64,000 bases of DNA from Candidatus Bathyarchaeota archaeon (GTDB lineage: Archaea; Thermoproteota; Bathyarchaeia; Bathyarchaeales; Bathycorpusculaceae). A model generated the notes under the pieces. The model was not told where the DNA came from. It worked only from the letters and a program-made list of their open reading frames with translations, and searched no databases. The first letter of the stretch is position 1. Every line of letters starts with the position of its first letter. This document shows positions 10,158 to 31,222 of the stretch, piece after piece. Made by a program: the position numbers and the translations under genes. The DNA is taken from the NCBI GenBank assembly GCA_963811105.1, contig CAWEPZ010000011.1:1152001-1216000 (forward strand). Reading direction: 5' to 3'.

Positions 10158-12278
10158 TTACTGTTTTAATTTGGATGATTTAAACTTAGCCAACTTCAAC
10201 AGTGCAGAGTTACTGACGACGGTTAGGCTGCTTATCGCCATTGCCCCAGCCGCATACATGGGATTCAGCAAACCTGCAGCCGCTATTGGAATCATGATAA
10301 CGTTGTAGGCAAAAGCCCAAAACAGGTTAGTGTCAATTTTACGCATGGTTTTCTTGCTAAGTTCAACGCCTAAGGCTACATCTCGTAAGTCATCTCGTAT
10401 AAGTACTATGCCCCCTGTCTCTTTCGCAATGTCGGTTCCGCTGCCAATAGCAATGCCGATGTCGGCTTGAGCCAACGCTGGCGCATCATTGATTCCGTCA
10501 CCAACCATCGCAACTATTTTTCCTTCACTCTGCATTTTCTTTATGACATCTGATTTCTGCCATGGCAACACGTTTGCAATGACCTTGGGTATGCGTAGTT
10601 GCTGGGCGATGGCGTTTGCTGTTCTTTCATTGTCGCCTGTGAGCATGGCAACCTCCAAATTCATCTCTTTTAGGAGCTCAACTGCTTCTGCGGCGCTTTC
10701 TTTCACTGTATCCATAACTGCAACTAATCCGACAGCCACTGCCTCGACAGCCAATATCATAACAGTTTTGCCTTGTGACTCCAGCGATGTTAAATCAGCC
10801 TCAATTTCGCTTATAGAAACGTTTTGTTCCGACATTAACTTGCGATTTCCAAACAGCACTTCTTTGTCTCCGACAATGCATTGGACGCCTCTGCCAGGCA
10901 AAGCCTCAAAACTGTCGGCTTCTAGAATCTTTACTTTATCAACTTGAGCTTTGTTGAGGATTGCCTCTGCCAAGGGATGCTCTGAGCCTTTCTCAGCGGC
11001 ACCTGCAAACAGCAACACGCTTTGCTGAGTGTAGGCTTTGTAGGTTTTGATGTCGGTTACACTTGGCTCTCCCTTTGTCAAGGTGCCTGTTTTGTCAAAT
11101 ACGACAGTTGTGAGTTTTCTTGCTTTTTCAACGTATTCGCCGCTTCGTAGGAGTACGCCGTATTCTGCGCCTTTGCCGACACCTGCAAGAATAGCTGTCG
11201 GAGTAGCTATGCCCAGCGCGCATGGGCAAGAGATTAAAATAACGGCTAACAAGGATAGAAATGCTTTTGTAAAGTCGCCGCTCGCTATGAACCAGTAACT
11301 AAATGAAACTGCCGCGACTGTCAAGATGATTGGAACAAACCATTTGACTATGCGATCAGCAAATCTCTGAACTGGAGCGCTTGAAGCTTGAGCCTCTTCA
11401 ACGAGGTGAACGATTTGTGATAGGGCGGTTTCGCTGCTGAGTTTCGTGACTTTAATTGTCAGGAGTCCGGTTTTGTTGATTGTGGCGCCGATGACTTCGC
11501 TTCCGATAGTTTTCTCGACAGGAATGCTTTCTCCAGTGAGCAGTTTCTCGTCGACAGACGAGTGTCCCGCGGTTACTGTTCCGTCGATTGGGATTTTTTC
11601 GCCTGGCTTGACAAAGACTATGTCGTCTACTTTGACCTCATCAATCGGCATGTCGATTTCCTTTCCATCTTTGACGACGCGAGCCATTGTCGGTTGCATT
11701 TCGAGCAGTTTGCGTATTGATGCTGCCGAGCGCCGTCGGATTAATTCTTCTATGTATCTGCCCAGCAAAACGAACGCCAGGATGCCGATGGCTACTTCCA
11801 TGTAACCTGTGCCGGGTTGTGTGTTGGTGGTGGCAGAAGGCAGGAAGAAGACAGTTATGACTCCGTATACCCAACCCGCAACAACTCCGACTGTTACCAG
11901 AACATCCATGTTGATATTGCGGTTTCTTAAGGAGCGGTATGCACCTTTGTATATCTTGTAGCCAGCTATCCAGACAATTGGTGTCGAGACAACGAAAATA
12001 ATTATGTCATAAATTCTTAGTCCACCGACGACATCAAGATACATTATTGCGGTGATGAGACCAAACAATGTTAGCACTTTCAAAACAAGTGCCGCTATTG
12101 CCCCAGTTAAAGTGAATGTAACTCGGCGCTGCATCGCTTTTAGTTCACGTTCTGGCGCTGTGTAGACGTCGAGGCATTGTTGGCTGCAAAAGTAGTAGGT
12201 TCGGTCGCCTATCTTGGCGCTGAGGGCTGTTTCTGTGTCTACATCCATGCCGCATACGGGATCTCGTATTGTTACCAT
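10158..12278 (-). CDS. copA: Cu(+)-exporting P1B-type ATPase with N-terminal YHS/TRASH domain
   Basis: DPVCGM N-terminus, [32 protein letters not shown] and MAISS motifs. Confidence 0.93.
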
Positions 12279-14247: not shown

Positions 14248-16077
14248 TCAGCGAGTTTTTTCACGTAATCTTAGCAAGATTCCGTTTATAGTTGATTCAG
14301 CTTTCTCTTTGCGTTTCTGGTATCCATTAATGCTTTCCTTGTAAGTTTCCAATGAAATTTCACCTGTTTTTTGGCGTGATTCAAGGCTCTTTATGTTTTC
14401 GTCAGCTTCAGTCAAGTCTTCTTCGGCAGAATCAAGCTGCTTAGCGATATCCGAGTAGAGGCTCCCTGAGTTTCGGAATACATCTTTAAGCTTATCAGTA
14501 CTCCTGTTGATTGTTTCTAGGCGAATCTCCATGGCTTTTCGCTGAGCCTTATATTGGCTTCTTGGAATCTTTCCTTTCTGGGCTCTTGATTCAAGCGATT
14601 TTAATTCTATTTTTAATTGTTTTTTCTCTTCGTAGGCGTCAGTGAAATCTCGAATGTTCTCAGTAGTTAATCTCTGGCCAGCCATGAGTTTAACCTCCGC
14701 AGTCTGCTTGATGGATGTTGCCTGTGTCGGCTCCTGGGAGGCAGTTTTTTGCATTTTAGGTATGGTTATTTCCTTTGTCTTGCGCTTTCTAAATATAACG
14801 GCACCTACACAACCGATCACTGCAAGAAGTGAGAGCCAAAAAGTAGGTCTGAAAGAAGCCCAAACCGGGTTATAATTATATGCGATCTGCACAGTAATAT
14901 TTTCTGGAGTGCTGTAATCCAAGTAGCTTATTCCATTTCTCATTAATGTAAGAGTTTCTTGGAAAGAATTCCTTGTTAATGTAGAAGAGGAATCAAGAGC
15001 TGACAGTTTTGGGCTTACGATTGAGGCACCTTCAGGTGGAACAAAAGTGAATGTTGCATGCTCAACAAAATAATAGAAATCTGGGAAAAGATAGAACTTT
15101 CCTATACTGTATTGGGTACCTTGAAACGTTGCACTTGGCAAATTATAGTCAGCGGTGAGAATTGTTGATTGACCACTTGATAAGAACGTAACCAAAGTAG
15201 CGTTAATAAGTTCTGCGTTATGAGTTACGTCACTACTGCCATAACTAATTGTTCCAGCTACTTCCGTTTTTAATGCTCTGTCAAATGAATCTCTGATAAC
15301 ATTGTTGGAAGAGGTAGTAGGAACACCTAAAATAAATGTTGTCATCGTAGATGGGGAGTTGTTAGTAAGGTGATACTTATCTGAAACAGCCACTACACCT
15401 GATGGCTCAATCGTAATTGTGCGATCTAAGGAACTAATTGTCGTTAACTGTAAAGTTCCTATTGATATTTGGAAAGAAGCTAATCCCACAATATTAGTAT
15501 AGGGAGCTAAGTTTTGAGCTGCATAATTGTTTCCTTTAACTTCTCCATCAGTTTTACTGATGTTTAAATTCGCGGGAGAGCTTGGAAAATTTATAGTCAC
15601 ATTACAATTTCCAATTCTTTGTGTGAGACTTGGATAAGCTGGATAATCAAGAGTATAAATCGAATCAAATGGGTTAAAACTAATAACATCAGAAGATAAG
15701 ACAAATGCGACAGTAAAAACGCTAGGTGTTTTTCCATTAAAACTTACTTGAGTTCCATAAAATTCGCTTTGGCTACCTAGTTGGACACCTAAAGTCACTG
15801 GGTAAGAATTGTTGTCATCAAATGCTACAACTCTTAGGATGCTATCACTGTACTTTGAGGGCAAACCAATCATGAAATCATCGGTAACCTGACCAGAAAC
15901 ATGAATTGTATCTCGAATGAGTACTTGCCCAGAATACATTACTTCAACCTCATGATCTATCTGAGTGACGCTATAACCTGCGCTTTGAGCGGAAACCGTT
16001 CCATTAAGCAAAACGATTGGCAAGAAAACTATTAAAAGGAAAAATGTTACCATGAAGATCGCTAAGGCTCGTTTCAC
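14248..16077 (-). CDS. Ribophorin I (OST1/RPN1)-like single-pass membrane protein
   Basis: Signal peptide, beta-rich ectodomain (ISSLDRTITIEPSGVVAVSDKYHL, FVPPEGAS), one TM, helical/coiled cytosolic C-terminus. Confidence 0.65.
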   Translation of the reverse strand: MKRALAIFMVTFFLLIVFLPIVLLNGTVSAQSAGYSVTQIDHEVEVMYSGQVLIRDTIHVSGQVTDDFMIGLPSKYSDSILRVVAFDDNNSYPVTLGVQLGSQSEFYGTQVSFNGKTPSVFTVAFVLSSDVISFNPFDSIYTLDYPAYPSLTQRIGNCNVTINFPSSPANLNISKTDGEVKGNNYAAQNLAPYTNIVGLASFQISIGTLQLTTISSLDRTITIEPSGVVAVSDKYHLTNNSPSTMTTFILGVPTTSSNNVIRDSFDRALKTEVAGTISYGSSDVTHNAELINATLVTFLSSGQSTILTADYNLPSATFQGTQYSIGKFYLFPDFYYFVEHATFTFVPPEGASIVSPKLSALDSSSTLTRNSFQETLTLMRNGISYLDYSTPENITVQIAYNYNPVWASFRPTFWLSLLAVIGCVGAVIFRKRKTKEITIPKMQKTASQEPTQATSIKQTAEVKLMAGQRLTTENIRDFTDAYEEKKQLKIELKSLESRAQKGKIPRSQYKAQRKAMEIRLETINRSTDKLKDVFRNSGSLYSDIAKQLDSAEEDLTEADENIKSLESRQKTGEISLETYKESINGYQKRKEKAESTINGILLRLREKTR

Positions 16078-16122
16078 TCGTATTCACCAATTAAGTTTCT
16101 TTAATCTTGTGTTCGCCTATTT

Positions 16123-16137
16123 ATTACTTTGCAGTAA
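16123..16137. repeat. Left direct repeat (attL/TSD-like)
   Basis: ATTACTTTGCAGTAA; TTAC/GTAA arms around a 6-bp TTTGCA spacer. Confidence 0.8.
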
Positions 16138-16603
16138 GATGCGCAAATTATTTATTTTTATTTTTTTTTTTATAATTTTATAGAAATAGATTAGATTGAA
16201 ATTTGAATAAGAAGCGTGGATCTTTGACTTATTAGTATTTTGCTTTTTTTTTAAAATATTTAGGGTTTGCAGTTAAGACAAAACCTGGACAACCACATTC
16301 TTCAAAAAACGAAAGTCAGTCTTTTTTTTGCTTCTATAAAGTTAAAGTGGCGAAATCATATTCTTTTTTATCGAAAAGCAGCGAGGATTTTTATTCGAGT
16401 ATATAGTAGTGTTGTAGATATAGATATTAATTATATTGTGTTTTGTGTTTTTTTTTTAATTTATATTTTAAAAAAAAGATGAGATAGAAAAAAGTTTGTT
16501 ATTTATAAGTTTTGTAAGAAATGGATAAGGAAAAATGTTAAATGTAGATTGATTGAGTGGGAGTTTATGTTAGGTTAAAGTTTAACAAAATGAAGGAAAA
16601 AAA

Positions 16604-18936
16604 ATGAATAGAAAAACAAAATTGATCGCATACTAATTGTATTTTAATGATAGCTTTTTAACTTTGTAGCAATTACAGTTAAAGCTGCTCAATACACAAA
16701 TTTGTAAGATAGCGGTGGAATATGATTGCGTAGGTGTTATGCATATCAGATAGTTCAAATAATAGCTTAAATGAGCTTCACATTAACTATAGGAATTGGT
16801 TAATAGCTTCTTAGTGAATGTATGGTTTCACTATACTTCAGGTATTCGATATATGAAGGATGCGCTTCAAGTGATTTTACAAGATTGACGGTACATAAGA
16901 TATAGTTGGTCTGTTTATATAAAGGTGATATATCAGCTTGGTTTGATTACACGCTAATCAGGTTGGCATATGGATAATCAAGTTTGATTTTTGGTGTTAT
17001 TTCAGCGGGAAACTATAGCGTAGAGATTGGAATATGTGGTGGTTCAGTGTTCAACGCTCTCTCTCAGTTACTATGCATATTCTGACGGATTTACACTTAA
17101 CTGTTCACAATATGGTAGCTTCTTGTATGCTATGCTAACTGATTACTGGATAAGATTAATATGCTGAGAATCGAGAATGGTGGTCAATGCGGAATATTGC
17201 ACTGGTATAATAGGAGGAGGACTATGGATAGCAGATATAAACACATATATGAGCAACTATAAGTTCACGCTACGTTCAAGCGCTAAGCACGCTCACATGC
17301 ATGGAGAAGGTAGATGCTCTACGGACTGTTGGAGGCATATGGGGATAACAATTATGTACAATGTACTTTTCGCAAATATACAAGTGGTCAAACATAGTTA
17401 TGACGGCAGATGCTACAAACTCTCACAAAACCAATGACAACTTTAGTGAACGGTACATGCGAACGTTCCACACCGTTGGGAAGCAATGATTGCGAACTGG
17501 CGAAGTATACTGGCATTGACAGACGTAGTTCGCTAACAATGATTTTCTATGAATATTAATGTGCTGGCACGATCCAAATCCTGGGGAGTTACAGCATCAT
17601 TGGTAGCAGTAGTGATGGAAGAATGATTAAATACGATCATTACGGAGCTGTGACAGTAACGTTCGCATATGATAACAGGTACCTTTACATGGGATAATAC
17701 TTCTTAAGCGTACAGAACTTGGCAGTGCAGGTTACGCTTAATCAACTGGACAGTGCAGGGCGATGTATCAGGTTTGGCTTTCACAACTACAGGCTAATGG
17801 TAATGAACATATAACTGGTATTCAGCAGTTTAGGCACGTAGACTACGATAGCGGCATACTGTTAACACTCAGTAGTACTTCTCTGCACGGGGTTGCAGTG
17901 ACGTGTATATACAAATTAGTTAACAACTGGATATATGCTGTGGAACGTTCAGCGGGTGGTTTTGTACTTTTCAGTGGTAGCACTCAGTGCTGATATGGAA
18001 TATACGCGTTCGCTTCGATGATGGATACTGGTACGCTGGGATTGAATTCAGGTATAAACTATGGATAGGTGAATTGACAAGCTGGATGGGGAGCTTTGGG
18101 GATTACGGCGTTGATCATACGGCGGATGATAATCTCATATCAATATGACGGCGTGCAGCTACACTGGACCAACGGATAATAGTTTGTCTACCAGATAAAC
18201 TATACTCACGAACTCCCAGAGGGGTATTATGGTTCTCAATGGGTTACAGCATCATCGCTGATGGGAAGCTTTTCACATACAACAGTGAGCACACGCAGTC
18301 AATATACAAGAGGCTGGAGATTATGCATAAACATAAACAGGCGAAGGCATTGGAACATACAGGCTCTATGGCTCAACGCAGTGGCTGATGGATACCTATA
18401 GCAGGCAACGCATATGACGGCTACATGTATGTTTCGGGAAGGGCAGAGCGCACAACAGTTTCTGCTCAGACACGGTGACTTGGACTCAGTGTTGATTAAG
18501 GTACAGTTCTGGATCAGTTCCTGCTCAGCAGGTACTCCTGTGTTCGGCAGGTCATGGCACATACATGGAGTACTTGCATATGCAGAAGCGATCCCCAGCA
18601 CTTCACTGTGACTGGTGTCTGTCAGCTACTTGCTATTGACCGAACGGAACGCAGTTAACATTGGAACGGCAACAGTGAGTAGTGGCAACTCCAGTATGAA
18701 TTTACTCCGACAATCGACGGTGTTAAAGATTACAGCCACATTACAGGCGACGATGCTTATGGCATTCATGGGTAGATACAGGACTATCAGTCGGTGTAGT
18801 GCCTCAAGCATCCCAGACTGAACTGCATAGCAACGCAAACAGATTATACCATGACAATTATTGCTGCAGCTATTGGATTAGCATTGTTGTTGTTATCTCA
18901 GTTGCCATAGCTGTTATGATACTTGAGAAACGATAA
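16604..18936 (+). pseudogene. Shattered large secreted, C-terminally anchored PQQ-like beta-propeller surface protein (Bathyarchaeia type)
   Basis: Fragments recovered across many frameshifts: MNRKTKLIA signal peptide, AQYTNL, FLVNVW, SAWFDYT, IIADGKLFTY, AVADGYL, MEYLHMQK (18565), C-terminal hydrophobic segment and KR-stop. May be intact in vivo. Confidence 0.75.
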
Positions 18937-19559
18937 ATCAATCTGACAAAACCAAAACCCCATTTTCTTTTTTTCGTTAATCAAACTCCAAAAAGAGAAA
19001 AAACCCAGCCCAAACGGAGGTATATCCTTTCTCTCAAGAAAAGCTGAAAAGTTTTCATTACTTACCGCATTATGCAATGATATTTGTTGTTCAATGAAGG
19101 ATCAAACATTCCCTTAATCGTAAATAGGGTGCTTATTATGCTCTGAACCTAAGCCCATAGGTTGAAAAACTGTTTCGAATTTATTCCACCGCAATATTTG
19201 TTCTTGAGTCATAGAATAGAGTACCAGTATGTCGAAATCGAGAAGTCTATCTTTTTCTCTAAGAATCCCACCAAGGCATAAATAGCATTAACTTGAACTG
19301 GAAGATCTAACTATGCATGTTTTCAATTAATCGCTCAAGATTCCTAAGAAGGGTTGACCTTCGTAGGCTATTCTTATTGGGCATCGTTTAATTGATTAAT
19401 GTTGAAATTCTTTTTAAATTTAGGGCAGAGCAAGTGAGAAGTTTTTTATCTTTAAACGACTAAATATATCAATCGTTGTCTTGTTTTGTGTTGTCTTCAG
19501 AGTTAACTCTCTGTTTTGTTGTCTCCTTGATGTAAAGTGAAAAGTGATTCAAGCTTCCC

Positions 19560-20095
<536 letters not shown>

Positions 20096-20175
20096 TCTAC
20101 GGGACATTTAGACCTAAACTATAAAAACAGAAAAATCGTAAGTGTTATGCCCCTTTTTTTCAGCATTGAACAATT

Positions 20176-20418
20176 TCATTGGCGTATTGTGCAAAGCGTT
20201 CTTTCCGCTGTCGAAGCACTAAAAAGTAAATCGTCAATGGTGGCGGTAAAAGTGGCTAGTTTTACTTCACATTTTATCAGAGTTACAACTTTTTTCTTTT
20301 CTCTCATTGTTTTAACGACAAGTCCAATTGGAGTTTTGGAGTTGTCTGGGGAAACAGCATTGGACACTGCCTCAGCTGTTTTCTCGTCAGCGTACTCAAG
20401 TGTTATCGTTGCTTCCAA
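20176..20418 (-). CDS. pcc1: KEOPS complex subunit Pcc1
   Basis: AVSPDN motif, 80 aa, canonical position after the rps15 and DHH genes. Confidence 0.85.
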   Translation of the reverse strand: MEATITLEYADEKTAEAVSNAVSPDNSKTPIGLVVKTMREKKKVVTLIKCEVKLATFTATIDDLLFSASTAERTLCTIRQ

Positions 20419-21862
20419 GTTTCTCGCCTTTTAATTGTCTGCCAATTAGTTCATCCACTGTTTTAATGAAACTTTCAACCTTGTCGATTGGAGTTTGAGC
20501 TCCTGCTGCAATATTGTGTCCTCCACCTTTGCCTCCATTCGCTTCTGAAGCTAACCGCATAACTTCTCCCAGGTTTACGCCTTTGCGAATTGCAGCTTCT
20601 GTTGTTCGTGCTGAAAATTTGGCCGCCTGCTCTTTTTCAACGTTAGCAAATGCTATGAGTGGTTTTTCGTTATTGGCTAGTCCAGAGACGATTATAGACG
20701 AGATTGTTCCAATGATTTTTTCGTTTATGAAACTTTCTCCATAGATGACGTAGATATTTTGGAGCTCTCGCATACGTTCAGGTTTTTCATTGACCCAGCC
20801 CAAATACTTGTTAATGTTCTTGCGATAGTCTTCAAGAATCTTGTTAGCTTCTTCGAGAGCTACTTTGCGGTCACCCATACAGATGGCTATGCCAAGGCTC
20901 GGTCTATCCATTCTTCCAGTTGAGTTTAACACAACTGCGAATTCTCTGGCATCCCGCAACGCGGTGTTTGGCTCTTCTTTAGTTAAAACGTAGATGTACC
21001 CAATCAAACTCTCAACCGTCAAATGTAACCCCTTAGATAACAAATGGTCAGCCAAAGCAGAGCACAAACGACGTTTTTCGTCTTCGTTTAAGTCGCGCAG
21101 CGCCCTCCACTTTTCACCTTGCTTAATGGGTATGTCTAAGCTTGCTAGGAAAGCTAAGGCTTTGTCTTCTTCTCCACTTAAGCCTGGAATAAATGGGTTA
21201 GTTGTAGTAGCCAAAGTCCGATGAATTGGCCTGGTTTCTCTGCCGAAAAAGGTTAGGTCTTTTTCAACTTTGAGTATGCCAGCTGCAACGGCGTCGTCTA
21301 CTATTATCTCATTTAGGCAGCATAGTCTTCTCTGTTCATACTTATCCTGCATATCACCCAAAGCGCCAACCAATGCTACTGGGGCCAAATCCACATTTGC
21401 AGAGTTTACTGCTTTAGCTACAAAGTAAGCAACACCTGAGCCACTAACATCACTTGCCCCATCAATTCCGAATAAATGAGGGTTTACCTGAACAAAATTG
21501 GGGTTGCTCGAGGTCCCATTCATCTGATGGTGATCAAGGATAAGCAACTTAAAGTTTGGGATTTTCTCGTTTAATAGGTCAAGGTTGCCGCTTCCAAAAT
21601 CCGTAAAAATAACCAGCTGCGGTTTGTCGGCACCGATTTCGCCAACGATTTTCTCATCAAGCTGCTGAGTAATCCTTATCCGAAACTTTGCATCAAGGCG
21701 ATATAGTACTTTGCCCAATATACCTGCAGCTGCGATGCCGTCGGCATCTAAATGCGAAAAAACGAGTATAAAGCCATCTTTGTGAGCGGTTTCCAAAATT
21801 ACTTTTGACGCCTCTGATGCTTTAGCTAAGAAGCGTTCAATAGATGCTTGCTGTGCAGCCAT
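20396..21862 (-). CDS. RecJ-like DHH phosphoesterase
   Basis: SHLDADG, FTDFGSG, LDHH, GALGDMQ, GGGHNIAAG motifs. Confidence 0.92.
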   Translation of the reverse strand: MAAQQASIERFLAKASEASKVILETAHKDGFILVFSHLDADGIAAAGILGKVLYRLDAKFRIRITQQLDEKIVGEIGADKPQLVIFTDFGSGNLDLLNEKIPNFKLLILDHHQMNGTSSNPNFVQVNPHLFGIDGASDVSGSGVAYFVAKAVNSANVDLAPVALVGALGDMQDKYEQRRLCCLNEIIVDDAVAAGILKVEKDLTFFGRETRPIHRTLATTTNPFIPGLSGEEDKALAFLASLDIPIKQGEKWRALRDLNEDEKRRLCSALADHLLSKGLHLTVESLIGYIYVLTKEEPNTALRDAREFAVVLNSTGRMDRPSLGIAICMGDRKVALEEANKILEDYRKNINKYLGWVNEKPERMRELQNIYVIYGESFINEKIIGTISSIIVSGLANNEKPLIAFANVEKEQAAKFSARTTEAAIRKGVNLGEVMRLASEANGGKGGGHNIAAGAQTPIDKVESFIKTVDELIGRQLKGEKLGSNDNT

Positions 21863-21950
21863 GCTTACGTCACGCTTTGCGTAAAGGGGCTAATTAGATT
21901 TAAAGCTGGTGTATCAGCAAAAAAAAATAAACAAAACCAAGAAAGAACGT

Positions 21951-24871: not shown

Positions 24872-25489
24872 TTAGGTCCTCTTCTTTTTATTCCACTCAG
24901 CAAATTTCCGAATAGCCATTGCCCGATGCGAGAAACCGTTCTTCTCCTTGATTGTCATTTCTGCAAACGTTTTGCTGCTTCCAGTTGGCTGAAAAACAGG
25001 GTCAAAACCGAAACATGCTTTCCCTTTTTGTTTGCGTTCGGCTAGGGTTATTTCGCCTACGGATTCGCCGCTAAAACACATCGGCTCGCATAAGGTTTCG
25101 TCTACATAAGCTATAACTGACTCGAACTTCGCCCGTCTGTCTGCCATTCCTTCCATGAGTTTGAGCATACCGCTATTGTGGATAGTCTTGTAAACGTAAG
25201 CCGCATATGGCCCTGGAAAACCAGTGAGCGTATCAATAAATAAGCCTGCGTCTTCTACAAAAATCGGAAGCTTTGTGTTTTTGTATGCATTTATTACGCT
25301 TTTTTGGGCGATTTCTTTTAGGCTATCGCTTTGAACTTCATCTCCCTTAACACGCAGCAGCGCCACTGTTAAGCCGTATGGGCTAAGAATGCTTCGGGCT
25401 TCATTAAATTTGTTGATGTTGCCCGTTGCAAAGAAGACAACCTTGTTTGATAAACCGAAGGTTCGATTATTGTTTTCTTTCTTCGACAT
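24872..25489 (-). CDS. rdgB: Non-canonical purine NTP pyrophosphatase (RdgB/HAM1)
   Basis: FATGNINKF, VEDAGL, GFPGPY, FGFDPVF, SHR motifs. Confidence 0.95.
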   Translation of the reverse strand: MSKKENNNRTFGLSNKVVFFATGNINKFNEARSILSPYGLTVALLRVKGDEVQSDSLKEIAQKSVINAYKNTKLPIFVEDAGLFIDTLTGFPGPYAAYVYKTIHNSGMLKLMEGMADRRAKFESVIAYVDETLCEPMCFSGESVGEITLAERKQKGKACFGFDPVFQPTGSSKTFAEMTIKEKNGFSHRAMAIRKFAEWNKKKRT

Positions 25490-26126
25490 AGCGGCCACGC
25501 TTCTCTATCTCCCTGATTTTCGCATAAACGTTTTCAGCCTCCTCAACTCCCAAAACCGACGAATAGCCAGATAAGACTTTCTTGAAGCATGATTCCCAAA
25601 CCAAATAATGCGTACTCTGAAGCGCTCGCTTCATTAAATGCAAATCCACACCTTTCGCCTCCACTTCGCAGTTTTTTTCACCTAAACCGAAGTCAATAAA
25701 AAATATTTTGCCTTCAGGATTAAGAATCATGTTCGAAGTTGTTAAATCGCCGTGGATTAAGCTGTGTCTGTGAAGTTTCCCGATTAATTCGCCGATTTTG
25801 AAACATAATTCATTTCGCCTTTCTTCTGAAGCTTCATTGAGCAATTGTTTGATTTGCTCTCCCTCCACATACTCCATTATAATGGAAGCTTGGGGCACGT
25901 TAACCATATAAATCAGCGGAGTCGGCACCCCTGCTGTTTTAGCTTCATGAATCAATTGCGGTTCATGAACGGTACGATAACTCCGAATTTGCTCATCTAA
26001 TGCAAGGGGACGATATCTTTTTGGGATTCGCACCTTAATAACAACTTTCTTGCCATGCCACTCGGCAAGATAAAGACTGGCTTCTGCCCCTTTTTTAAAC
26101 AGCGTTAACTCGACTACTGTATCCAT
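25467..26126 (-). CDS. bud32: KEOPS kinase Bud32
   Basis: KGAEA, HGDLTTSN, IDFGL and RGRY motifs. Confidence 0.95.
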   Translation of the reverse strand: MDTVVELTLFKKGAEASLYLAEWHGKKVVIKVRIPKRYRPLALDEQIRSYRTVHEPQLIHEAKTAGVPTPLIYMVNVPQASIIMEYVEGEQIKQLLNEASEERRNELCFKIGELIGKLHRHSLIHGDLTTSNMILNPEGKIFFIDFGLGEKNCEVEAKGVDLHLMKRALQSTHYLVWESCFKKVLSGYSSVLGVEEAENVYAKIREIEKRGRYVEERKQ

Positions 26127-27148
26127 GGTACATCTACCTTATCCACACGCCAGCGAAGCTTAACATAACTCTCATTCAAAGGAGTAACCAACCCATGACT
26201 GTAAGCCAAAACGCCCGTCCATGCAATCATTGCACCGTTGTCTGTTGCAAACTGAAGCGGAACTACTCTAAACCGTGCACTATGCTCCTGTGAAATAACT
26301 TCAAGCATAGACTGTAACCGTTTGTTAGCTGCTACCCCACCAGTTAACAAAACCTCTTTCTTTTCGGTGTGTGCCAATGCTCGCTCTGTGACTTCGGTAA
26401 CCATTGAGAAAGCATATTCCTGAAGGCTATAACACAAATCTTCCAGGCACCATTTGCCCTCATGCAGCCGGGCCGTCGCCGCCGTCAGCAAACCGCTAAG
26501 AGACAAATCCATACCTTTAACAAGATAGGGCAAAGAAACCAAATTTTCACCTTTAGCAGCCAACTGTTCTACCGCAGCTCCAAGCGGTAACCCCTTCTTG
26601 TGCTTAAGACCCGCTTCTCTTGCAAAAACGTCCAAGCAGTTTCCTAAGGCTATATCTAGAGTTTCACCAAAAACTCTGTAGCGTCCAGATTCAAAAGCCG
26701 TAACCATCGTGTTACCGCCTGAAACATAAAGAGTTACGGGGTCCTTAGCGCTGGTTTCCAGCTTCCCAATTTCAATATGCGCCACAGAATGGTTAACCCC
26801 TACAAGCGGAATGTTAAGGTAAGAAGCTAAAGCCCGAGCGACAGTTGCTCCTGTACGCAAAGAGGGTCCTAACCCTGGTCCTTGAGAGAACGCGATAACC
26901 GTTAAGTCACTTGGTTTCAAGCTTGCGGCGGTTAAGGCTTCCTTCAAGACTTTGTCAGCTACTTCAGAGTGGTGTCTTGCGGCTTCTCTAGGGTGGATTC
27001 CGCCTTCTGCAGGAATGTAGCTGTCTGATTTGTTGGCTAGTATTTTGCCTTCGAATGTCGCTATACCAACGCCAAAATCGTCTGCCGAAGATTCTATCCC
27101 TAAACTGTAAGCTCTTTCATTGTTCTGCTGTTTTTGCGTGTTCTTCAT
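26114..27148 (-). CDS. kae1: tRNA N6-adenosine threonylcarbamoyltransferase Kae1
   Basis: GGIHPREAARHH, GPGLGPSL, VNHSVAHIEIG, VSGGNT, DNGAMIAW. Confidence 0.97.
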   Translation of the reverse strand: MKNTQKQQNNERAYSLGIESSADDFGVGIATFEGKILANKSDSYIPAEGGIHPREAARHHSEVADKVLKEALTAASLKPSDLTVIAFSQGPGLGPSLRTGATVARALASYLNIPLVGVNHSVAHIEIGKLETSAKDPVTLYVSGGNTMVTAFESGRYRVFGETLDIALGNCLDVFAREAGLKHKKGLPLGAAVEQLAAKGENLVSLPYLVKGMDLSLSGLLTAATARLHEGKWCLEDLCYSLQEYAFSMVTEVTERALAHTEKKEVLLTGGVAANKRLQSMLEVISQEHSARFRVVPLQFATDNGAMIAWTGVLAYSHGLVTPLNESYVKLRWRVDKVDVPWIQ

Positions 27149-27233
27149 GGTATTCCACGTTTCTTAGGGGATACATATTTTTATTTGGATTCAACGCTTA
27201 TATTCTAATTGCATTATTTGGAATTGATATTAG

Positions 27234-29129: not shown

Positions 29130-29986
29130 TTAGTCTTTTACTATTTCCAAGCTTATGTCCAGTGCCTCTACACTATGAGTAAGCGCTCCCAAACTGATAA
29201 CGTCAACTTTTGCAGTTGCATACTCCAAAAAGTTTTCGCTCGTGATTCTTCCACTCACTTCCAACAATACGTCGCCGAACCCAGACTTTCCTTAACATTT
29301 CCTCAGTATCATTCGCCTGCTGTGGAGAAAAATTATCCAGCATAACAATGTCAGCTCCTGCTTTTGCTGCTTTAAGTGCATTGTCGGCTCGTCTGACCTC
29401 AACTTCAATTTTTTTGGTGAACGAAGCAATCGCTTTTGCCTTCTTAACCACACTTTCCACGCTTCCAGCAATGGCCAAGTGATTGTCTTTAATCAAAATC
29501 ATGTCGTCCAAATGTAGCCTATGTGGGTCGCCGCCGCCAATGAGAACCGCTTTCTTGTCAAAATACAACAGCCCCGGTGCTGACTTGCGGGTAGCGGCAA
29601 TCCGAGCTTTCGAACCTGACAACTTCAGTTTCTTGGCCAACGCTCTTGTTGTTGTGGCAATGCCGCTCATTCTTGAAAGGAGATTCAGCAGTGTTCTCTC
29701 AACTTGATAAAATGGTCTGAGCATCACCAAAAACCTCGATTAAAACCTGTTTGTTTTGAATTTCGTCGCCGTCAGCAACTTTAGCTTTAACTTTCAACCC
29801 CAAATATTCAGCAAGAACAACGGCCTCTTCTATCCCGGCTACCACACCTCCCTCTTTAGCAATAACTAATGCCTTCACAATCAGTTCTGATGGAACAATT
29901 GCTCCAAATGTTACATCTCCTTGCCCAATGTCTTCCGAAAGTATTTGCTTAAGCTTCTCTTCCAGAATTTTCCGAGGAACAAACAT
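29130..29986 (-). CDS. nadC: Nicotinate-nucleotide pyrophosphorylase, two frameshifts (probably sequence errors)
   Basis: EDIGQGDVT, ERTLLNLL, MSGIAT, ATRKS, HRLHLDD, IKDNH, IEVEV, MLDNF, DVISLGALTHS; single extra bases near 29702 and 29289. Confidence 0.9.
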
Positions 29987-30082
29987 GACTTGTATTTTGC
30001 TGACTAAGCTTTTAAATTGCTTGCTTTTCAGGCAGAACATGGGATAATTAAAATAAACCCGCCGATCTATTCTGTAGGCGTC

Positions 30083-31222
30083 ATGCGATTATTGCTTAGC
30101 TGTTCAGAACTTGGTTTAGGCCATGTTTCCCGTATCATTCCTTTAGGAAAACGACTGCAAAAGCATGGCCATGAAATGTTCTTCTTTTCAGGAGGCAAAG
30201 CTCACGAAATACTCCAAAAGGAGTTTTCGCACGTTTACAAATGCACACCAATATCTTGGTACGAAAACGCATACGGCATTATCACTTCCGCGTCACTAAT
30301 CAACCTGTTCTTTCCTTTGCCTTTATTCAACACCGAGAAAAATAGGCTCGAGATAAAAAATTCCAACGCATGGGAAACAATACATCGCTATTACGATCTA
30401 AGAGAAAACATTCGTGACATCGCACCGGACCTGCTTATCGCTGATGGCGACATAAATGCACTTAGACTCGCTCAGAGATGGAGAATCCCTTCCGTCTATA
30501 TAGCTAACATTATAAGACCAAGTTACGGGTTCTCCGCTCTTCTTAGTCCAGGAGAACGCTTGGTTGAACGATATGTCAAAAACTGTTCAAAAATCATTAT
30601 ACCAGATAATCCGCCGCCGTACACTATTTCAGAATACAGCGTAGGAAACATGGCTGGGATGGGCTTAGATGGAAAAGTGGAGTTTACTGGAAGCTTTGTT
30701 GACACAACGTATGTAAAGGGGTCTAAAGAACACATTTTTGCACCTATAAGTGGACCGCCAGGTACAAGAGGAAAACTTCTAAAAACCCTTCTTCCAGTTC
30801 TTGAAAAACTCAAAAGCAAATGTGTCATAAGTTTAGGCACGCCAGGAAAAAAAGTGACAACAAGAATTGGAAATTGTGAACTTCATACATGGCTATCTCA
30901 AGAAGAACGAACAGCATATATGAAAAACGCTAAATTTGTCATTTTTAGCGGTGGACATGCAACATGCTTTGAAACCATCAAATATGGCAAACCAAGCATT
31001 TGTATTCCAACACAACCTGAACAATTGGGTAATGCAGCGAAACTTCAAGATTTAAACTGCTCAATTACTGCTAAAAATAAAAAAGAGTTGCAGAAGGCTG
31101 TTCAAAGAATAGAGAGTGAGCAGGAATCCTTCAATCGGAACATGTTAGCGCTCAACGAGTTCTCTAATAAGTTTAAGGGTTTAGACAGTGCGGTCTCAAT
31201 TATTGAAACCCTACTAGATTAA
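30083..31222 (+). CDS. GT-B glycosyltransferase (MurG/GT28-like)
   Basis: GLGHVSR, SGGHAT, IPTQPEQLGNA motifs. Confidence 0.85.
   Translation: MRLLLSCSELGLGHVSRIIPLGKRLQKHGHEMFFFSGGKAHEILQKEFSHVYKCTPISWYENAYGIITSASLINLFFPLPLFNTEKNRLEIKNSNAWETIHRYYDLRENIRDIAPDLLIADGDINALRLAQRWRIPSVYIANIIRPSYGFSALLSPGERLVERYVKNCSKIIIPDNPPPYTISEYSVGNMAGMGLDGKVEFTGSFVDTTYVKGSKEHIFAPISGPPGTRGKLLKTLLPVLEKLKSKCVISLGTPGKKVTTRIGNCELHTWLSQEERTAYMKNAKFVIFSGGHATCFETIKYGKPSICIPTQPEQLGNAAKLQDLNCSITAKNKKELQKAVQRIESEQESFNRNMLALNEFSNKFKGLDSAVSIIETLLD

Follow-up and report, generated by a model that had tools for sequence, protein, structure and literature searches.

Why would cytosine (C) almost vanish from one strand of an otherwise ordinary archaeal chromosome? 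The question is raised by a 64-kb stretch of DNA (the window) from a Bathyarchaeia-like archaeon, in which an inserted element of 3.9 kb (~16138–20080, hereafter the island) carries a broken gene for a PQQ-like beta-propeller surface protein (16604–18936, forward strand). The initial annotation had read the missing Cs at the left end of the island as processive, strand-specific deamination of mobile DNA, similar to the action of APOBEC enzymes or to repeat-induced point mutation (RIP), and had named a polishing or basecalling artefact as an alternative. We find that the anomaly is wider than it reported and that the differences from intact homologs are dominated by deletions, which favors the alternative: the C erasure is very probably local sequencing or assembly damage in the remnant of an integrated element, with the recorded sequence of the island corrupt, and the organism itself probably has an intact surface gene.

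The loss is plainest in the leader of the island (16138–16603, forward strand), an A+T-rich, C-poor region with 166 A, 29 C, 81 G and 191 T over 16138–16604 and with six A/T homopolymers of 8–11 nt. It holds both of the C-free runs first noticed, and the counts bear them out: 70 nt at 16145–16214 (A27, C0, G7, T36) and 189 nt at 16397–16585 (A69, C0, G39, T81) exceed every other C-free run of the window, the next being one of 67 nt in poly(A) (20018–20084) and then runs of 50 and 46 nt. G had been called plentiful in both gaps, which is right for the longer one and wrong for the first, and several of the Cs at the edges of the gaps had been placed in CpG, where three of the five lie when read by eye (16142, 16215, 16396). 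With 90% A+T and only seven G in 70 nt, the shorter run is unremarkable alone. The 189-nt run is far beyond chance, as a C-free run of at least this length had a frequency of 1.5e-5 in 200,000 shuffles of 16138–16604, and its C:G ratio of 0:39, where 39 Cs are expected from the G count, has a binomial p of 3.6e-12.

To judge what is normal in this lineage, we used a set of 80 related loci (1.52 Mb in total), all from the Bathyarchaeia group or near it, of which L001 is the closest relative of the window; the DHH-family protein encoded at 20399–21889 is 97% identical to an L001 protein. C-free runs of at least 128 nt occur only twice in these loci, as a 128-nt tandem repeat in L015 (5678–5805) and as 333 nt with no C and ~95% A+T in L013 (3810–4142). 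Lowering the length to at least 60 nt and counting G-free runs as well gives 17 runs, and the nine that we inspected are tandem repeats, low complexity of the Thr/Pro-linker type, or ~95% A+T; the 189-nt tract of the window is none of these. Natural G-free or C-free runs of 60–128 nt include L015 5678–5805, L068 3143–3217 and 8760–8836, L005 4597–4670, and L067 4006–4083, and are tandem repeats or low-complexity sequence resembling Thr/Pro/Gln/Asn-rich linkers, so that three-letter runs up to ~130 nt are not abnormal per se in the lineage. The L013 run partly resembles the poly(A) tract of the window, by composition only. The leader itself showed no homology to any of the 80 loci, a three-letter alignment in which C was treated as T gave low-complexity noise only, and comparison with the left end of an element in L002 found no homology beyond the core of the attachment (att)-like site described below.

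The anomaly extends well into the gene. CC is absent from 16293–17431 (1138 nt) and from 17682–18169 (487 nt), where shuffles that keep composition predict 16.2 and 14.7 occurrences and 0 of 5000 shuffles went as low, while GG is present at normal levels in the same two intervals (50 and 43). The next longest CC-free interval of the window is 245 nt, and the longest interval free of CC or of GG in the relatives is 428 nt. Same-base neighbors are generally rare here, as all eight of the 500-nt segments with the fewest of them in the 64 kb lie within 16751–19000. CC runs are lost, A/T runs are reduced, and G runs are not: on the top strand, stretches of C are hit and stretches of G are spared. 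The strand and base specificity first described stands, and of the widespread collapse of doubled bases that had been described with it the loss of CC is the main part, GG not being collapsed. There is no selective loss of CpA, since CA makes up 62–101 per 1000 dinucleotides vs. 75–88 in the controls. CC content is normal in 18937–19880, and homopolymer statistics are normal in 18937–19609.

What was lost can be told from intact homologs. The surface protein belongs to the PF13360 family, has an immunoglobulin (Ig)-like domain and a C-terminal membrane anchor, and would be ~850 amino acids (aa) long when intact; proteins of 820–900 aa form the family, with 2265 matches at E ≤ 1e-10 among 7999 candidates scored. 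As recorded, the gene carries deletions, frameshifts, and six in-frame stops. For its 3′ half, the reference was P0001, an intact protein of 363 aa that was retrieved with a 79-aa fragment and is near-identical to this half. P0001 is the only near-identical intact homolog, and it starts at a Met that is internal to the family. A word-based search with 17168–17434 gave no near-identical N-terminal homolog, and the 5′ half can thus be compared only with the family consensus, at ~60% identity; this consensus was built from 53 homologs, and a column was taken as invariant if at least 90% of these share the residue. A HMMER search of a representative library with 17742–17990 returned only the window’s own open reading frame (ORF; P0002) and two distant repetitive proteins. 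Inside the window, blastn and tblastn of the island matched only the island itself, with no paralog of its genes, and tblastx of 16140–19620 had no match among the 80 loci. With the family proteins as query, one distant paralog was found among these loci, in L005; it is intact and served as a control for composition and for the aligner.

In a frameshift-aware alignment with 17935–18933, P0001 has the same residue at 276 of 292 in-frame codons, yet the alignment needs 56 one-base, three two-base, and ten whole-codon deletions and two insertions. The 3′ half is thereby short of 90 of its 1089 nt (~8% of bases), and a total of 71 indel events stands against at most 16 residue changes across 363 codons, a ratio that neither natural decay nor deamination can give. 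We estimated which bases are missing as a posterior in which the possible lost bases are weighted by the codon usage of the window. By this estimate, the 3′ half lacks 32 C, 24 T, 21 A, and 13 G, and the 5′ part, relative to the family consensus, lacks 29 C, 10 A, 7 G, and 4 T; the one-base deletions that are unambiguous in the 5′ part comprise 10 C, 3 G, 1 A, and 1 T. It had been proposed that mainly T-to-C reversions would restore the 5′ part, which is not what we find. Substitutions were inferred against these protein-level references from mismatched in-frame codons that a single change can explain, and the 51 such cases include ten C>T, eight A>G, six each of G>A and A>T, and three T>C, with C>T and G>A equal, at four each, in the 5′ part.

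The codons of invariant residues tell the same bases apart. Proline codons (CCN) had been listed among the losses, and of the 23 family-invariant Pro only two are kept, with 16 lost to indels and five to substitutions. Of 43 invariant Gly (GGN), by contrast, 37 remain (Pro vs. Gly, Fisher p = 6e-10), and retention is also high for Asp (15/15), Trp (14/17), His (3/3), Gln (6/7), Arg (5/5), and Leu (8/10). In the L005 paralog, the same columns hold Pro at 15/23 and Gly at 27/43. A further reading of the initial annotation, that TTG TAA GAT represents L-Q-D, is borne out at 16702–16710, where homologs have L/M-Q-D. The stop at 16705 thus falls at a Gln position; TAA accounts for four of the six stops in frame.

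All of these anomalies lie within a pair of exact 15-bp direct repeats, and the flanks are clean when compared with L001. The left repeat ATTACTTTGCAGTAA (attL-like; 16123–16137, forward strand) is an exact copy of the right one (attR-like; 20081–20095, forward strand), and L001 has a single copy and an empty site. Given that window positions 16080–16137 and 20082–20420 adjoin in L001, with 98% and 92% identity, respectively, ~16138–20080 is an insertion, as had been supposed. Sixteen of the 80 loci contain the att-like core TTACYTTRCAGTAA, among them L080 (11795–11808) and L002, which has it twice, 5.2 kb apart (11878–11891 and 17110–17123). L002 holds a 5.2-kb element at the same site, and the L080 element there encodes a tyrosine recombinase (PF00589; 449 aa, intact) together with a primase-helicase (D5_N/DUF5906). 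The intergenic site downstream of pcc1 is thus one at which elements have integrated repeatedly in this lineage of Bathyarchaeia, and the island is a decayed integrative element at this att-like site. Scans of the window for transfer RNA genes and Rfam families as an RNA-gene integration target found none.

The right end of the island is abnormal in another way. At 19610–19992 (forward strand), tblastn places the 3′ remnant of a tyrosine recombinase (integrase) in two frames, at 58% identity over 109 aa and 60% over 35 aa to the L080 protein. The remnant corresponds to residues ~298–428 of the 449 and its first ~297 codons are gone; a 61-aa fragment of it that was tested had no Pfam match. Over 19701–19880, the window is identical at 136 of the 145 positions where L080 and L002 agree. 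Beyond this, over a degenerate A-rich stretch at 19881–20081 (forward strand) that stands in place of the ordinary 3′ terminus of the integrase gene and the spacer found in L080 and L002, nearly all of its differences from positions shared by the two are changes to A: 20 G>A, 16 C>A, and seven T>A. The stretch finishes in an uninterrupted A54 (20028–20081) that abuts the right repeat, whereas the longest A/T run in the relatives is 11 nt; half of the A/T runs of at least 8 nt in the window (8/16) are in the two ends of the island. Because the A-rich tract is colinear with the integrase end and spacer of both relatives, it reflects degeneration in place and not an added tail. Retroposition, with a poly(A) tail and a target-site duplication, was considered and is ruled out by this colinear alignment, which runs with a 5-column gap up to the same att core. 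A single chemical process cannot explain both the loss of C at the left and the change of G, C, and T to A at the right.

Taken as a whole, the corruption of the island is deletion-dominated and strand-asymmetric, with C dropped most and G least, and we consider that local damage to the record very probably accounts for it. If the island is variable among strains, it would be covered by few reads, perhaps one or a few, from a single strand, while the flanks would be corrected by reads of all strains; systematic errors, whether from noisy single-molecule reads or from a consensus model at very low depth, might then have persisted in the island. Strand-specific loss is as expected from one-strand coverage, and the predominance and asymmetry of deletions, the low-complexity ends, and the clean flanks are together as expected of a few single-molecule reads. 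Indirect support comes from the surroundings. The record holds at least one other isolated indel, as nadC is split by one extra A relative to all 10 relatives listed. The closest relatives are described as Nanopore-only Flye assemblies with one Medaka polish (PMC12313526), and in one of them, L001, the neighboring surface gene is in three pieces. Systematic errors that give short deletions are described for nanopore sequencing (PMC11927395), and the error rates of long reads are stated to add frameshifts and stops that pseudogenize genes (PMC12007338).

Several points weigh against damage of this kind. The absence of C over 189 nt and the near-total loss of CC over 1.1 kb are more base-specific than generic long-read error, and the literature consulted on nanopore error modes, including the available part of PMC11927395, describes no C-, CC-, or strand-specific dropout. 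The middle of the island (18937–19880) looks clean, so that low coverage of the whole island is insufficient alone. Homopolymer collapse as a general rule is weakly supported, as 45 of the 56 one-base deletions can be read as run contraction vs. 35/52 in a random-deletion control. In addition, we infer both the long-read origin of the window and its low one-strand coverage, and the 9-kb contig of P0001 may itself have the gene broken or truncated on the upstream side.

The first of the rival explanations is the one proposed at the outset, that an APOBEC- or RIP-like defense turned top-strand C to U in vivo and that the change was fixed as T. The loss is indeed specific to C, falls on one strand, and is confined to an inserted element; CC is the context that APOBEC3G prefers, and it is selectively absent (0 vs. 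16.2 expected over 1138 nt). The TAA stops, one of them at Gln, fit as well, and two of the 23 invariant Pro positions read TTA, that is, CCA with both Cs changed. However, deamination preserves length and converts C to T, and here 90 of 1089 nt are gone from the 3′ half, Pro codons were lost by 16 indels vs. five substitutions, and CC disappeared by deletion rather than by editing. A, T, and G were deleted as well; the 189-nt tract has no significant surplus of T relative to A (81 vs. 69, p = 0.37); and the substitution spectrum, which the initial annotation had proposed as a check, is not dominated by C>T (10, next to eight A>G and six G>A). His, Gln, Arg, and Leu are largely kept although their codons hold C (often, in the case of Leu), and changes at the right end include C>A and T>A. 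The proposed search for deaminases, made in the window only, detected no deaminase Pfam family in 62 of its 84 long ORFs (13 scanned at E ≤ 1e-3 and 49 at E ≤ 1e-8, with 22 overlapping ORFs left out). We therefore consider in vivo deamination extremely unlikely. If, on the other hand, the sequence is correct as it stands, the island would be an old pseudogene shaped by a natural deletional bias, with a skewed A+T-rich promoter region and a poly(A) tract expanded by slippage. Part of the island is clearly old, as the integrase lacks its first ~297 codons, low-complexity runs of 60–128 nt without G or without C are natural in relatives, and nadC is frameshifted too. Neutral decay is nevertheless expected to give the opposite ratio of indels to substitutions from the 71 to at most 16 seen across 363 codons, which is the main ground for rejecting this reading. 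The relatives’ three-letter runs are of types to which the window tract does not belong, their CC- or GG-free intervals stop at 428 nt where the island has 1138 and 487 nt, and their longest A/T run is 11 nt against A54. The region upstream of the L005 paralog, moreover, has an ordinary C content. We leave natural decay a slim chance.

A different group of explanations puts the fault in the DNA molecules that were sequenced. If C was modified or damaged in them, for example in an episomal or viral copy of the element, a basecaller might have dropped or misread it on the strand that was read. This would suit a bias that is specific to C, is strongest at adjacent Cs, and leaves G on the same strand untouched, and it would suit the remnant of a mobile element, given that integrase and primase-helicase genes are carried by its relatives at this site. 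It fits poorly with a truncated integrase and the lack of a replication gene, which make an active episomal form unlikely, and with the fact that the reads placing the island must span the chromosomal flanks, where host replication would not keep a modification in all contexts. The normal CC content of 18937–19880 speaks against it too, and the deletions of A, T, and G and the poly(A) end would go unexplained. On balance we find it very unlikely. Related to it is the idea that hypermodification of C specific to the element, or the footprint of a host attack on its single-stranded DNA, made sequencing skip Cs, to which we give a small chance. Modification or damage of C on one strand, if true, would point to a cytosine-directed modification or defense system in Bathyarchaeia.

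The remaining features of the locus are those of an ordinary chromosome. Between the surface gene and the integrase remnant lies a spacer without a recognizable gene (18937–19609), with six-frame fragments of at most 57 aa, two of which were tested and matched no Pfam family. To the left of the island is an intact gene for a 609-aa protein (14248–16077, reverse strand) that is probably secreted or on the surface, judging by an N-terminal hydrophobic stretch read by eye, and that has no significant Pfam family. Its ortholog in L001 (11929–13692) is in three ORFs of 121, 356, and 145 aa, a split that suggests indel errors or decay in a Nanopore-only assembly. To the right is pcc1, for a KEOPS subunit (20176–20418, reverse strand; PF09341, E = 7.3e-5), and next after it a DHH/RecJ-like gene with DHH domains (20396–21862, reverse strand); this flank is conserved in most of the 80 loci. 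KEOPS-related genes are clustered here, with a Bud32-like kinase at 25470–26138 and Kae1/TsaD at 26117–27163 in addition to pcc1, and the ORFs of the kinase and of Kae1 overlap. Further on, the product of nadC (reverse strand), a quinolinate phosphoribosyltransferase, is divided between two ORFs, one for the N-domain and one for the C-domain (29206–29739 and 29702–30088), which overlap at 29702–29739; at TCAAGTT the relatives have one base fewer, and the extra A reflects either a lone indel of the assembly or a true frameshift.

A genuine erasure would rank as a major finding, a DNA-editing attack on a mobile element in archaea, of which we know no earlier case. Under the reading that we favor, damage to the record, the 3.9-kb stretch is a warning: it is unfit for pseudogene counts, mutation spectra, or codon statistics, and for inference on methylation or defense. 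The recurrent integration site beside pcc1 is ordinary biology.

How the island compares with known systems follows these lines. It resembles archaeal integrative elements of the tyrosine-recombinase type in its exact 15-bp repeats, in the empty site of L001, in the integrase gene at one end, and in the other elements that relatives carry at the same site. It differs from them in keeping only ~130 integrase codons, in having no replication gene, and in its surface-protein cargo; it is a remnant rather than an active element. Retroviral hypermutation by APOBEC3G is similar in that C and not G is lost in a strand-coordinated way, most strongly at CC, in a foreign element. That process is length-preserving and made of C>T, which reads as G>A on the other strand, whereas the island has lost its Cs mainly by deletion, lacks some of the other bases as well, and shows no dominance of C>T. 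Fungal RIP likewise depletes inserted sequence of C, but its targets are duplicated sequences, in which it changes CpA on either strand, while the island has no second copy in the window, retains G and GG, and has not selectively lost CpA. Consensus errors of long reads differ from what we see in base specificity, which is unusual in the island (189 nt without C, 1.1 kb without CC, G spared), and in the collapse of its ends to low complexity (A54). They resemble it in that deletions dominate, frameshifts and stops fragment genes, one region is hit while its flanks stay clean, and an intact, near-identical protein (P0001) exists elsewhere.

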